DNA of 64,000 nt, from positions 4,384 through 68,383 of the forward strand of contig JAIRLM010000022.1 of the NCBI GenBank assembly GCA_031259325.1. Direction: 5' to 3'. The stretch comes from Puniceicoccales bacterium (lineage in GTDB: Bacteria > Verrucomicrobiota > Verrucomicrobiia > Opitutales > JAIRLM01). The notes under the pieces are model-generated. The model did not search any database, was not told the origin of the DNA, and was given only the letters and a program-made list of their open reading frames with translations. Positions 31,244-36,441 of the stretch are shown here, in pieces (the first letter of the stretch is position 1; each line of letters opens with the position of its first letter). The translations under genes and the position numbers were made by a program.

Positions 31244-31353
31244 GCCAATAGGTCCATGCAATAGAGCGTGGGCGTGTGTCTTCCAATGAAAAATGATGCT
31301 GGATCGTATTTTGGCTGTGTTTGCCATGGAAGTGGCCTGTTCGCAAATCCGCG

Positions 31354-31382
31354 TTGACATCATATCTCTGGGGTTGTAACTT
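31354..31382 (+). promoter_or_regulatory. Candidate sigma70-type promoter for the T3SS operon (TTGACA-17 nt-TAACTT)
   Basis: TTGACA at 31354-31359, a 17-nt spacer, TAACTT at 31377-31382, and GGAGAGG 8 nt upstream of the sctD ATG at 31400. Pattern match only. Confidence 0.35.
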
Positions 31383-31399
31383 CACGGAGAGGTTTATCT

Positions 31400-32764
31400 A
31401 TGGCAGACGATACGGCAGACTCTGGAGAGAATGGGGCATCGCAGGCGTTCCTTTTGCGGCTCCTATCCGGCCCACACGCGGGGGCAGAGGTGGAGTTGGA
31501 TGAGCATGACAAGGTGGTGGTCATAGGGCGTGATGATTCCTGCGATCTGGTGTTGGCGGATGCGTTGGCGGCGCCGAAGCATGCGTCTTTTCAGTATGAA
31601 GAGGGCAAGCTTCACCTAAAGCCCCTTGACGGGCAAGTCTTTCTCAATGGGAAGCTTATTTCTGGAGAATCGGTGGAAGTCCCGGCCTTTCAGTTTGTCA
31701 CAATTGGGACCACACAAATTGTTGCCGGGGAAACGAATGCGGAGTGGCCGGCAATTTCGCTCGCCGACGCCCCACCACTTGAAAAACCCCTGGAAATGCC
31801 TCCCAATGCGGACGGCAAACCAGTGGCCGCAGGTCCCGTGAAGACCAATGATGAACAAAATCGAAAAAAAATGCGGCGGATCATATTTGCTGGCATCGGG
31901 GTATTCGTTGGCGGACTTGTCGTCCTGATGCTCTTGCCGGACAGAAACCGGCCAAGTCTCGTCGAGAATGAAAAAATTATCCGGGCAGAAGTTGCCAATT
32001 TGGATTATCGGGCAAGCGTCGATGTGCGCGTTGACGCTGGTCGAATCGTTGTCGAGGGATACGTCCCAACAAATGCCCAATTGCGCGCGCTAAAGAACGA
32101 GTTACTGCAAATCACAACCGCCATCCAGTTCAATGTGCGCAGCGAGGAACGGATTATCCAAGCCATCGAAGATTCCGTTCGTGACATTGACGGGTCCGTT
32201 CGCGTGGTGTCGATTGCGCCTGGGATATATTCCGTCGTTGGCTATGTGCACAATACGGATCGCTGGCATCATATCCGAAATCGACTCAATCAGGATATTC
32301 CCGGGGTCAAAAAAGTTAATTCCGACGTTATGACCCCGGAAAGTGTGCAAACGCTCGCCAATACGACATTGGATGAGTACGGGCTCCGTGATCATGTTTC
32401 GGTGTTTCCGGAATCAGGCCGGGTGGTGTTCCGTGGCTCCGTGAGTGCACTATTTGCGGAAAAATGGCGGATGGCAGCCGAAGACATCATCCAAATTTTG
32501 GGTAATATTCTTCCCGTTGTTTTTGACGTACAGTCGCAATCTGCTCAGTCCGATCCGGCGGGAAATAGCCTCTTTGCACAACCGATCCAGGCCATTACCA
32601 TTGGTTCCTCTGGCCTGAGTTGGGTGACGACCCGCGACGGAAAAAAATATTTCGTGGGATCTTTTCTTGCGAGTGGCTGGCGCATTGATTCCATCGATGT
32701 GAGTGGGTTGAAGTTTAGTCGCAACGGCACGCAATTTGCCCTGCGACTGGAGGCACTCCAATGA
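31400..32764 (+). CDS. sctD: T3SS inner-membrane ring protein SctD (YscD/EscD/PrgH family) with N-terminal FHA domain
   Basis: FHA-like N-terminus (LRLLSGPHAGAEVELDEHDKVVVIGRDDSCDLVLAD...HASF), a single TM (IIFAGIGVFVGGLVVLMLL) and a periplasmic repeated alpha/beta region. It is first in the D-L gene order. Confidence 0.85.
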   Translation: MADDTADSGENGASQAFLLRLLSGPHAGAEVELDEHDKVVVIGRDDSCDLVLADALAAPKHASFQYEEGKLHLKPLDGQVFLNGKLISGESVEVPAFQFVTIGTTQIVAGETNAEWPAISLADAPPLEKPLEMPPNADGKPVAAGPVKTNDEQNRKKMRRIIFAGIGVFVGGLVVLMLLPDRNRPSLVENEKIIRAEVANLDYRASVDVRVDAGRIVVEGYVPTNAQLRALKNELLQITTAIQFNVRSEERIIQAIEDSVRDIDGSVRVVSIAPGIYSVVGYVHNTDRWHHIRNRLNQDIPGVKKVNSDVMTPESVQTLANTTLDEYGLRDHVSVFPESGRVVFRGSVSALFAEKWRMAAEDIIQILGNILPVVFDVQSQSAQSDPAGNSLFAQPIQAITIGSSGLSWVTTRDGKKYFVGSFLASGWRIDSIDVSGLKFSRNGTQFALRLEALQ

Positions 32765-32988
32765 AGTCGCGGGGCACGAAAGTCGGGATTCACATGGTTC
32801 CGCTCGAACGGGAGCTTTTTGATCCGGCTCGAAAGAAGGAGGTTGAGGATCTTTTTTACAGGGAACTCGGAAATGTTAGACGAATTTTACGGGAAGGACT
32901 TGACAGACGTAGCTTCGGTGGGTACAGTCGCTTTGCTAAAGCCCTGGAGGCGGGGATAAGAGTGGTGAGGGGTTATCGCGCGCGCTAG
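32761..32988 (+). CDS. sctE: YscE/PscE-like needle co-chaperone (SctE)
   Basis: Start overlaps the sctD stop (ATGA). Small helical protein. The C-terminal AKALEAGIRVVRGY resembles YscE SKALESAIAIIHYV. It sits between sctD and sctF. Confidence 0.55.
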   Translation: MKSRGTKVGIHMVPLERELFDPARKKEVEDLFYRELGNVRRILREGLDRRSFGGYSRFAKALEAGIRVVRGYRAR

Positions 32989-34179: not shown

Positions 34180-34182
34180 AAT

Positions 34183-35052
34183 ATGAAAATCGGTAAAAAA
34201 TTGCGGATATTGGCGCTGGGCGCACTGTTGTTGGTTGGATCCGGATGCGGAAAGTCACCGCTCTATTCAAATGTTTCCGAGCGGCAGGCAAATGAGATGA
34301 TCTCGATTTTGCGCATGCGCAACATGGAGGTGAGCAAAATCGCCGGCGCAGAAAATATGTGGACGGTCGTGGTGGCCAACACGGATTTTTCCAACGCCGT
34401 GGAGGTTTTGAACCTCTTTGGCTACCCGCGTGATGATTTTTCCACCCTTGGGAAAGTATTCCAAAAATCGGGGCTGGTTTCTTCGCCGACGGAGGAGCGC
34501 GCCCGTTTCATGTATGCCATATCGGAAAGCATTGCGGAAACCATCAGCCACATCACTGGCGTCGTCACTGCTCGCGTGAATATTGTCCTTCCCACAACTA
34601 ATAGTTTTACCGAAGCCGTTACCCCATCTTCCGCGTCGGTTTTTATACTTTACCGTCCCGGTACTAATATGGAGGATTTCATACGCGACATTAAAAATTT
34701 GGTTACCAACAGCATCGAGGGGTTAAGCTATGACAAAGTTTCCGTCGCCCTCTTCCCGTCGCCGGTTGTGAACGACGTGATATCGGAAGGGAACCAGGTA
34801 ATCAACCTGTTGGGTATCCACATGACCCATTCGTCCATCTGGGTATTCCTGCTCCTGCTTCTGATAGTGGCCGTGGCCGTGGCCGCCATATCCTTTGTGG
34901 GCGCCAAAATTCTCTACGACTACATGACCGTCAAGCGTGACGAAAAAGAGCGGCTCAAAGCGGCCGCGGATGGCGACAAATCCGAAGAGGCATCCGCAGC
35001 GGAGGAAAAGCCAGCGGAATCTTCAGAAAAGAGCGAAGCTGGTGAGGAATAG
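34183..35052 (+). CDS. sctJ: T3SS inner-membrane ring lipoprotein SctJ (YscJ/EscJ/PrgK family)
   Basis: Lipobox LLLVGSGC, YscJ signature LYSNVSERQANEMISILRMRNMEVSK, C-terminal TM and an acidic tail. Confidence 0.9.
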   Translation: MKIGKKLRILALGALLLVGSGCGKSPLYSNVSERQANEMISILRMRNMEVSKIAGAENMWTVVVANTDFSNAVEVLNLFGYPRDDFSTLGKVFQKSGLVSSPTEERARFMYAISESIAETISHITGVVTARVNIVLPTTNSFTEAVTPSSASVFILYRPGTNMEDFIRDIKNLVTNSIEGLSYDKVSVALFPSPVVNDVISEGNQVINLLGIHMTHSSIWVFLLLLLIVAVAVAAISFVGAKILYDYMTVKRDEKERLKAAADGDKSEEASAAEEKPAESSEKSEAGEE

Positions 35053-35069
35053 CAAAAAAGTGAGGGTGT

Positions 35070-35768
35070 ATGTGTGCCGATGCCGTAGTGTTTGAGCCCT
35101 TTTTGAAGTCCAACATGTCCCTGGCGGGGAAGGTGTTGCAATTCCTCTATGAGCCCTTGCGTTATCTGCATCCCCTGCGCCTTCGCCAATGGATTCCGGA
35201 GACAGAAATATGGGAAGCCATCATGCGGACCCGCCGCGGGTGGGACGCGCTCAACGGCTATCTCTTGGGAGAGTTAAATTTAGACCGGGAGCTGGTCCTT
35301 CCGCCACTGTTCCCACGGCAACAGTTACTTTATGCGCCCGCGGAAAAAATTCGTCGGCTTGCGCAATTCGCCGGTGCTGCCATTTGCGTGGACGGAATTC
35401 GGCATACGGTCCTGAAAAAAGAGCGCGAGAAACTTCTCAATGTAATCGGGGAAGAGGTTTATCACTTTGCCCTGCGCAAGGCCATTTTTTTCCGCCCAAA
35501 AAACGTTCGCCTGGACTCATTTCCCGGCAATGACAAACCGCTGCCGACACGGGTGATGATCGCTGGAAAGTTTTGCGTGGCGACATGTCTATGTGATCTA
35601 CCCAGGGCGCTGCTGGAGCGCTTTCAACTCAAATTCCGACCCGGTGAAAATTGGGCCTTTCCGAAATTTCGGAATGGCTTCACGGACCGCATTTGGTCCT
35701 TTTTGGAAAATATTTTAACCCGGTATTGCTCGGATAAAACCAAAGGAGGCGATCATGTGGATGCTTAA
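35070..35768 (+). CDS. sctK: T3SS sorting-platform protein SctK (YscK family)
   Basis: Lies between sctJ and sctL. LQFLYEPLRYLHP parallels YscK FQLRFCPAAYLH, and AICVDGIRHTVLKKEREKLLNVIGEE parallels YscK [27 protein letters not shown]. Confidence 0.65.
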   Translation: MCADAVVFEPFLKSNMSLAGKVLQFLYEPLRYLHPLRLRQWIPETEIWEAIMRTRRGWDALNGYLLGELNLDRELVLPPLFPRQQLLYAPAEKIRRLAQFAGAAICVDGIRHTVLKKEREKLLNVIGEEVYHFALRKAIFFRPKNVRLDSFPGNDKPLPTRVMIAGKFCVATCLCDLPRALLERFQLKFRPGENWAFPKFRNGFTDRIWSFLENILTRYCSDKTKGGDHVDA

Positions 35769-36441
35769 AAAGGATGAAAAAAAGCTGCAAATTGTGCCCG
35801 GCAAAAGGATTTTACACGCCGACGAATTCATGTCCTTCGGCTCCGTTGGGGAAATTATCAATGAGACGGAAACATTAATTCGCGAATCTCTGTCCGCCGC
35901 GGAAACGAAGGCGAAACAGATTGTCAGCGACGCCCAGGCGGAGGCAAAAAAAATCATTGGCGGGGCCAAGGCCGCTTTCGAGACGGAACGCAAAAAAGGC
36001 CATGCGGCTGGGATGGCCGAGGGCAAGCAGGAACTTTCTGAATTGATGATGTCCGTCACTGCAAAAAGGATGGAGAGCTTTGAAAGGTTTGAAGAAAGCA
36101 TCGTCAACATTGTCATGCGCTCGGTCAAACGGATCATTGGCGAAATGGATAATGCACAACGGCTTAAGGCGATTGTCCACAATGCGTTGTCCGCCGTGCG
36201 CAATCAAAAAAGAGTGGTCGTTCGCGTGAATCCGGAACAGGCCACGGCCGTACGTGAGAGCATTGGAGGGATTGCGAAAGGCGGAGATGGCGATGCGCCT
36301 TTTGTGGAAGTCATTGCCGATGGTCGCTTGCACGCAAATGACTGCATCATCGAAACGGAAATCGGTACCGTGGATGCAAGTTTGGACATACAGCTCAAGG
36401 CCATTGAAAAATCCCTGCAAAAACACGTGGTGCAGGACTGA
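35755..36441 (+). CDS. sctL: T3SS stator / ATPase regulator SctL (YscL; FliH-like)
   Basis: Overlaps sctK by 14 nt. FliH/YscL pattern: IL.ADEF...A..I...A..EA..I...A......E...G...G, with a C-terminal DCIIETEIGTVDASLDIQLKAIEKSL. Confidence 0.8.
   Translation: MWMLKKDEKKLQIVPGKRILHADEFMSFGSVGEIINETETLIRESLSAAETKAKQIVSDAQAEAKKIIGGAKAAFETERKKGHAAGMAEGKQELSELMMSVTAKRMESFERFEESIVNIVMRSVKRIIGEMDNAQRLKAIVHNALSAVRNQKRVVVRVNPEQATAVRESIGGIAKGGDGDAPFVEVIADGRLHANDCIIETEIGTVDASLDIQLKAIEKSLQKHVVQD

Follow-up and report, generated by a model that had tools for sequence, protein, structure and literature searches.

An sctD–sctL operon that probably forms one module of a scattered Ysc-like type III secretion system in an uncultured Puniceicoccales bacterium

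The sctD–sctL operon

The stretch analyzed here, referred to as the window, comprises 64,000 nucleotides (nt) of a metagenome-assembled genome (MAG) of a Puniceicoccales bacterium (assembly GCA_031259325.1, contig JAIRLM010000022.1, positions 4,384 to 68,383 of the forward strand), and at its center lies an operon for components of a non-flagellar type III secretion system (T3SS), or injectisome. Eight tightly packed open reading frames (ORFs) occupy the plus strand from 31400 to 36441. The first is sctD (31400–32764), which encodes an inner-membrane ring protein with an FHA-like cytoplasmic domain, one transmembrane segment and periplasmic BON-like domains. It is followed by an sctE-like gene for a small needle co-chaperone of 75 amino acids (aa; 32761–32988), sctF for the needle filament subunit (33016–33309), a gene in the sctG position for a 148-aa tetratricopeptide repeat (TPR) chaperone, a probable needle co-chaperone (33316–33762), sctI for the inner rod subunit (33778–34179), sctJ for an inner-membrane ring lipoprotein with a C-terminal transmembrane segment (34183–35052), sctK for the sorting-platform adaptor (35070–35768) and sctL for the stator tethering the ATPase (35755–36441). 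The sctD and sctE-like genes share an ATGA overlap, the later gaps are 27, 6, 15, 3, and 17 nt, and sctK overlaps sctL by 14 nt. On the minus strand trxB starts at 31243, leaving a divergent intergenic region of 156 bp before sctD. Both the packing of the ORFs and the divergent trxB are exactly as given in a preliminary description of this DNA, and all peptide motifs that it quoted for the eight proteins are present in the translations.

Assignments were decided by curated family thresholds (TIGRFAM, Pfam, and NCBIfam cutoffs, with scores in bits). In these profile searches, which had been proposed beforehand, six of the eight proteins pass a curated Sct threshold. SctD scores 136.8 with TIGR02500 against a cutoff of 86 and also matches PF16697, PF21937, and PF23893. 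SctJ (GenBank MDR0727587.1, encoded on a 68.7-kb contig and already named SctJ of a Puniceicoccales bacterium) reaches 211 with TIGR02544 against a cutoff of 162, finds MxiJ, EscJ, and PrgK in the PDB and is 42.5% identical to YscJ; the FliF model gives it just 43 against 130 and, with SctD and SctJ passing their own models, a flagellar assignment is excluded. SctL passes TIGR02499 (124.6 vs. 78.7) and NF005392 (177 vs. 159) and is 32% identical to YscL over 221 aa, while SctK passes PF06578 (YscK) with 35.8 against 22. SctI passes PF17001 (35 vs. 32.4), and the profile of its orthologs aligns with YscI in the C-terminal KTAxxxSQxxxTL region (hhalign probability 79.5%, E = 1.5e-5). SctF is a borderline pass of PF09392 (29.6 vs. 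29.4); its profile aligns with YscF over the full length yet weakly (hhalign E = 1.2e-3, probability 20%), and its position matches that in Ysc.

The E-like and G-position proteins pass no curated threshold. The E-like protein reaches 21 bits with PF17376 (DUF5398), below the cutoff of 28, and a profile of 14 orthologs matches Yersinia YscE with an hhalign probability of 93.9% (E = 1.6e-7) over 59 of 66 columns, KALEAGIRVV of the window protein aligning with KALESAIAII of YscE; the earlier label of YscE-like is thereby borne out. For the G-position protein, the NCBIfam CdsG model NF052304 gives a sub-threshold match (E = 1.9e-9, 37.8 bits vs. a cutoff of 170), and no profile match to YscG is detectable (hhalign probability 5%). 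Its single-sequence AlphaFold model (predicted local distance difference test score, pLDDT, 77) shows seven helices in a TPR arrangement, and the PDB structures resembling it most are those of the T3SS TPR chaperones SycD, IpgC, AcrH, and PcrH (template modeling score 0.67–0.75). By its predicted fold the gene product is a T3SS-type TPR chaperone, and the epithet YscG-like rests on its position. Of the former designation as a TPR YscG-like protein, the TPR fold, as predicted, and the position stand; direct homology to YscG was dropped as undetectable, and the protein is described by its T3SS-chaperone fold of TPR type and its SctG position.

The operon sits between trxB and a convergent gene, amid xth, trxB, tRNA-Arg, hisS, tRNA-Tyr, accB, and accC, so that its reported placing among housekeeping genes is confirmed. 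Pfam scans further found ksgA, pcnB, atpB, infB, nusA, malQ, alaS, atpG, atpA, PBP2, eno, and pgk in the window, together with lptF/G, mreC, rplT, pheS, dinB, rsmH, and a few genes of no recognized family. The GC content of the operon (0.51–0.52) equals the window mean of 0.516, and the operon is thus no recent island. Pfam, applied to every ORF of 150 aa or more and to a selection of smaller ones, found no other T3SS family in the window. A tblastn of the window with SctN, O, P, Q, R, V, X, Y, W, and TyeA from Puniceicoccales, or with the complete pCD1 set of Yersinia (YscC, S, T, U, YopN, YopB, YopD, and LcrV among them), returned nothing beyond the operon, with the sole exception of the F1-ATPase alpha subunit (atpA, 45548–47110), which is 28% identical to SctN. 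Pfam and the two tblastn sets thus agree with the preliminary description, according to which the 64 kb hold none of sctN to sctW and no translocators. It had also noted the lack of sctC upstream of sctD; the gene is absent there, but this is no specialty of the locus, as sctC precedes sctD in none of the Puniceicoccales loci retrieved.

A putative promoter, TTGACA-N17-TAACTT, is read in the sequence at 31354–31382 (+), downstream of a conserved CGCAAATCCRCG block; 8 nt ahead of the sctD ATG stands GGAG, a ribosome-binding site. Both hexamers and the upstream CGCAAATCCRCG block are kept in the corresponding loci of three other species (L002, L022, and L023; loci retrieved from relatives are numbered with an L), while the spacer has diverged. 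Conservation in spite of near-saturated synonymous sites amounts to phylogenetic footprinting in favor of TTGACA-17-TAACTT, which had been pointed out at the same position beforehand, and the eight genes would be co-transcribed from this conserved promoter. Its -10 hexamer scores too weak for a generic sigma-70 scan; a generic promoter and terminator scan gave counts at chance level. A sigma-54 promoter upstream of sctD was also considered and rejected, the GG-N8-GC spacing being wrong for sigma-54 and the region not conserved. The heptamer GTAACTT, the -10-like part of the sctD promoter (31376–31382), has six copies in the window against three expected. It also stands upstream of pgk and rsmH (53432–53438 on the minus strand and 60037–60043) and, outside the window, about 40 nt upstream of sctN on two contigs described below (L005, about 2077; L008, about 9960). 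Possibly this heptamer serves as a -10 element typical of the lineage, in which case expression would be constitutive.

For the estimation of selection, the orthologous D–L locus of Gsp477_bin122 (L002) served as reference, the coding dS (synonymous divergence) between it and the window being about 0.9–2.1. The ratio of non-synonymous to synonymous divergence (dN/dS) is 0.087 for sctD, 0.19 for the E-like gene, 0.10 for sctF, 0.08 for the G-position gene, 0.16 for sctI, 0.036 for sctJ, 0.12 for sctK and 0.066 for sctL, and the value of the adjoining trxB (0.085) is comparable to the operon range of 0.04–0.19. All eight genes are intact and under strong purifying selection. The layout of trxB divergent from D-E-F-G-I-J-K-L recurs in four independently assembled species-level MAGs, Pcl387_bin45, Nm470_bin100, Gsp477_bin122, and Gsp477_bin156, which are also the closest GTDB species representatives; the convergent gene after sctL was detected in the first three of them, and sctK of L025 is intact. 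With a metagenome assembly as source, one could suspect that the junctions between operon and housekeeping genes are chimeric and that the true locus runs on into sctN. We regard such an artifact as scarcely credible. The junctions of trxB with sctD and of sctL with the convergent gene recur in independent assemblies of different termite samples (L002/L024, L022, L023), that of trxB with sctD also in L025, and the stretch from E to J inside the operon is found again in a separate Logan assembly of SRR14710918. In addition, it is rplS, not sctL, that lies upstream of sctN on L005 and L008. A layout recurring in four independent MAGs rules a chimeric assembly out.

Partner loci on other contigs

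Partners of the operon were found by searching with SctN and SctV of more distant Puniceicoccales loci and then reading the accessions in the 90%-identity clusters. SctJ (MDR0727587), SctN (MDR0727944), and SctV (MDR0727985) share one accession neighborhood, and the same four MAGs are each represented by one member in both the SctN and the SctV cluster. An SctJ accession can be tied to three of them, with J, N, and V within 500 accession numbers of each other; in the fourth, the N and V accessions co-occur within the same span and that of SctJ was not recovered. SctN passes NF005391 (772 vs. 657) and SctV passes TIGR01399 (907 vs. 692). The contig with sctN (L005, 6.4 kb) carries RDD, rplS, sctN, sctO, sctP, and a further gene, x, at which point it ends, before sctQ-R. 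Its GC content is 0.508 vs. 0.516 for the window, and its tetranucleotide distance to the window is 0.0118, compared with a mean of 0.0126 among equally sized chunks of the window itself.

The sctQ, sctR, sctX, sctY, and tyeA genes are known from the relative Gsp477_bin122. Here, D–L lies on a 268-kb contig; rplS, followed further on by sctN-O-P-x-Q-R, lies on a 135-kb contig (L008); and ferritin, tyeA, a gene for a SycN-like chaperone, sctX, sctY, sctV, and prmC lie on a 115-kb contig (L021). Each of the three contigs has 47% GC, their mutual tetranucleotide distances are 0.007–0.008, and housekeeping genes flank each block. SctR, beside sctQ in L008, passes its curated threshold. In L021, SctX passes TIGR02502 (67.3 vs. 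a cutoff of 30), SctY is slightly below NF052415 (60.2 vs. 70) and TyeA is below threshold as well (21.2 vs. 25.9). A scan for SctV in a metagenome collection that does not hold these samples returned relatives at 59–74% identity. By these contigs, the system is split into at least three loci. The split injectisome locus proposed in the preliminary description is thus supported by sctN-O-P and sctV on other contigs of the same MAG; of the missing genes for which it had suggested a genome scan, sctN (with sctO and P beside it) and sctV were located in the MAG and sctQ and R in the relative, while no sctC, S, T, or U turned up in the loci retrieved for this clade.

Three observations on these and more distant loci can be added. 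First, the extra gene between sctP and a short sctQ (L008 12757–13875; L005 4894–6048) encodes 370–384 aa with a faint match to the middle of the SctQ model, and the short sctQ (L008 13910–14608) encodes 232 aa corresponding to the SpoA/FliN part; by analogy with HrcQA and HrcQB, SctQ may be split into two genes. Second, 1.4 kb upstream of the tyeA-sctV block of Gsp477_bin122, L021 encodes a 498-aa protein with a PF00443 UCH domain (5510–7006, minus strand). This domain is a ubiquitin C-terminal hydrolase of eukaryotic type, and a secreted deubiquitinase effector is a plausible role for the protein. Third, a stretch of L054 (5531–5890, Pcl387_bin12) encodes 130 aa with 32% identity to YscC about 4 kb upstream of J-K-L-N-O-P. 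It is the only secretin-like signal among the Puniceicoccales loci retrieved, and L054 belongs to a different T3SS lineage.

A second cluster, L006 (12.5-kb contig, JGI 3300042590), has sctX, a chaperone gene and sctW divergent from a contiguous D-E-F-G-I-J-K-L-N-O-P; together with L007, it is named as a second T3SS cluster in the accession range of the window MAG. Its SctN (MDR0728010) comes 25 numbers after the SctV of the MAG, and the D–L operon of the window could accordingly be a spare, a partial paralogous duplicate serving L006 and not the L005 block. We hold this to be very improbable. L006 has a complete D–L set of its own, whose SctJ is 45% identical to that of the window; its GC content is 0.595 vs. 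0.516, and its tetranucleotide distance of 0.031 compares with a maximum of 0.012 among window chunks of the same size. Moreover, L006 almost matches L046 (distance 0.0065) of Pcl387_bin38, from another sample, whereas L005 is without D–L and complements the window exactly. Given this discordant composition and the near-twin in a separate bin, L006 is probably a mis-binned or foreign (or horizontally acquired) contig, and two injectisomes in the genome are not claimed.

A scattered machine or a relic

We consider it likely that the locus is one module of a scattered Ysc-like non-flagellar T3SS in uncultured Puniceicoccales. The operon would supply the inner-membrane rings SctD and SctJ, the needle SctF with its two co-chaperones (the E-like protein and the TPR protein in the G position), the inner rod SctI, the cytoplasmic adaptor SctK and the stator SctL. 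Elsewhere on the chromosome, the sctN-O-P-x-Q-R block would contribute ATPase, stalk, ruler, and C-ring, and the block with tyeA, the SycN-like chaperone gene, sctX, sctY, and sctV would contribute gatekeeper and export gate. The separately encoded parts would then assemble in trans into one injectisome for the delivery of effectors to a eukaryotic cell, the target probably being a protist of the termite gut or the termite. We infer both the assembly into a working machine and the identity of the host.

Several points weigh against this interpretation. In the loci of the clade that were retrieved, tblastn with Yersinia proteins found none of sctC, S, T, and U, nor the N-terminal part of SctW, a needle tip or translocators. 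That the N and V contigs belong to the same genome is deduced from accession proximity, composition and co-occurrence, not from a closed genome, and accession proximity can mislead: MDR1457771 stands near the range of Gsp477_bin122, yet its 15,377-bp contig matches Gsp477_bin153. Proximity being imperfect, it is backed by the composition and the four-fold co-occurrence. The dS values are near saturation, which makes the dN/dS values approximate. We read the injectisome as probably functional and not a relic. As regards tip and translocators, no tblastn match to an LcrV-type tip or to YopB/YopD-type translocators appeared in about 50 verrucomicrobial loci, and such proteins are possibly encoded elsewhere or too divergent.

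The absence of sctC, S, T, and U from every clade locus retrieved would also suit a relic, in which the operon has survived from an injectisome without secretin or export gate and secretes nothing. Sister lineages with the smaller fragment J-K-L alone (L026–L030, L032) point the same way, as do the signs of ongoing rearrangement in the window, namely a remnant of an insertion sequence (IS) and a split atp operon. In particular, a 100-aa fragment of an IS DDE transposase lies at 42807–43106, and the ATP synthase genes are dispersed, with atpB alone at 12679–13602 and atpG and atpA at 44648–47110 without adjoining atpD or atpH; the scattered atp genes and the IS remnant point to a genome-wide break-up of operons. 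A relic is nevertheless unlikely, in our judgment. The eight ORFs are intact with dN/dS like that of trxB, the layout is kept in five or more species, SctN, O, P, and V are intact within this MAG, as are Q, R, X, and Y in a close relative, and the missing C, S, T, and U reflect the retrievable loci and not a whole-genome search.

Termite-gut Puniceicoccales display many T3SS arrangements. L010 is contiguous, with V-Y-X-chaperone-TyeA divergent from D-L-N-O-P-x-Q-R; five further loci have a D-L-N-R layout (L003, L037–L039, L041) and four have X-chaperone-W divergent from D-L-N-P (L006, L040, L046, L049). In L031, D-I and, further on, J-L are followed directly after sctL by an inverted N-R block. 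Smaller fragments lie among housekeeping genes, J-K-L-N-O-P alone in L009 and about ten others (among L036 and L042–L054), and J-K-L alone in L026–L030 and L032. A neighbor-joining tree of SctJ plus SctL, rooted with Yersinia and built without support values, recovers the window clade as monophyletic and sister to the J-K-L-only loci and L031; L010 and loci of the D-L-N-R type fall outside it. This suggests that the contiguous state is ancestral and the split state derived by rearrangement.

More tentatively, termite-gut Puniceicoccales might carry a distinct Ysc-related injectisome lineage of the Planctomycetes–Verrucomicrobia–Chlamydiae (PVC) superphylum in stepwise operon disintegration, and they may belong to the 'Nucleococcus cluster', the verrucomicrobial intranuclear symbionts of termite-gut flagellates (PMC8204192); we would put this below an even chance. 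The stages would run from V-Y-X divergent from D-L-N-R, through separate D-L, N-R, and X-Y-V blocks, to J-K-L alone, each under purifying selection. If true, it would offer a second independent natural experiment beside Chlamydiae, suited to testing if intracellular life and constitutive expression free T3SS genes from the selection for clustering, and it could show whether chlamydial and Ysc systems share a PVC-associated ancestor.

The closest relatives of the MAG are lower-termite gut MAGs, the Gsp477 series being from a sample of the lower termite Glyptotermes (PMC11707648), and from this origin the eukaryote-associated lifestyle put forward in the preliminary description is plausible. Since injectisomes mark direct manipulation of eukaryotic cells, a conserved and selected one in a termite-gut verrucomicrobial lineage suggests an intimate interaction with gut protists or the host. 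The various layouts in close relatives provide a graded series for how a multi-operon machine tolerates scattering, a subject discussed so far mainly for Chlamydiae. In MAGs, such systems would be overlooked or under-called by tools that depend on gene clustering.

Further features of the window can be listed. The convergent gene after sctL (36449–38110, minus strand), 7 bp from it, encodes 553 aa without a Pfam or NCBIfam match. It occupies the same position in L002, L022, and L023 and is fast-evolving (34% aa identity to L002, dN/dS about 0.4), and it is a candidate for an effector or accessory protein. A stop-free frame of at least 1713 aa without a Pfam family runs off the window start (3–5141, minus strand). 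In the relative L002, a DUF3638 protein of more than 3000 aa lies just past trxB, and giant proteins of no assigned function are frequent near these loci. Finally, a glycine riboswitch aptamer (46.7 bits) at 61702–61776 precedes a gene of the sodium:alanine symporter family (61921–63249).

Relation to known injectisomes

Non-flagellar T3SSs have already been reported in Verrucomicrobia, and scattered ones in all Chlamydiales, in Hamiltonella defensa and on the Y. pseudotuberculosis plasmid pYPTS01; constitutive expression has been proposed to relax the selection for T3SS gene clustering (PMC3459982). No paper on T3SSs in Puniceicoccales was found in our literature search. Given that the GenBank pipeline already names these genes and that scattered T3SSs are known, what is added here is an injectisome of Ysc-like type, likewise scattered, in a verrucomicrobial lineage of termite guts.

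Among proteins of solved structure, SctN and SctV come nearest to those of Yersinia. The best PDB match of SctN is YscN, with 530 bits for the catalytic domain vs. about 400 for EscN and SsaN (the PDB entry 9e58 is identical to YscN), and that of SctV is YscV, with 827 bits vs. 466 for SsaV; the C-terminal domain of SctV alone scores 408 with YscV, 312 with chlamydial CdsV and 173 with MxiA. YscN is 67% identical to the Puniceicoccales homologs retrieved, and YscV is 55% identical to the best SctV loci of the non-termite metagenome scan (L011–L015). With the E and G proteins leaning weakly to chlamydial models, the system is best described as Ysc-like and is not filed inside the Ysc family.

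The order D-E-F-G-I-J-K-L is the same as in the Yersinia virC operon (yscA-B-C-D-E-F-G-H-I-J-K-L of pCD1/pYV), in line with the virC-like order noted beforehand. The content is also the same (rings, needle with two co-chaperones, rod, SctK, and SctL), and the partner blocks mirror virB (N-O-P-Q-R and onward) and virA (tyeA, sycN, X, Y, V). In contrast to virC, no yscA, B, or C stands in front and there is no yscH/yopR. The preliminary description had counted the missing yscH as unusual, a view that we do not retain, as yopR/yscH is, to our knowledge, specific to Yersinia. Whereas the Yersinia genes lie within about 26 kb of plasmid, those described here form chromosomal blocks dispersed among housekeeping genes and, unlike in Yersinia, S, T, and U do not follow in the sctR block of any relative examined. 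From their Yersinia counterparts, the E and G proteins have diverged strongly, with no direct match to YscG and weak matches to chlamydial DUF5398 and CdsG, and the host phylum is Verrucomicrobiota instead of Proteobacteria.

With the chlamydial T3SS, the system shares the PVC superphylum, the distribution of genes over several loci among housekeeping genes, probably a eukaryote-associated lifestyle, and the weak, sub-threshold matches of E and G to chlamydial families. In Chlamydia, cdsD-E-F-G is followed by N-O-P-Q and, further on, C, with cdsJ-K-L-R-S-T separate. The break points here are different, the C-terminal domain of SctV is nearer to YscV (408) than to CdsV (312), and the presence of SctX, SctY, and a stand-alone TyeA in Gsp477_bin122 is counted as a further difference. 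A T2SS-like secretin defines the scattered 'Chlamy' T3SS family of Abby and Rocha 2012 (PMC3459982), and no secretin was found in the loci retrieved for the clade of the window. Compared by description, the systems of Hamiltonella defensa and pYPTS01 differ from the present one in phylum and break points; they are injectisomes of ordinary proteobacterial type, in which the core genes have likewise been dispersed by rearrangement in a host-associated bacterium.

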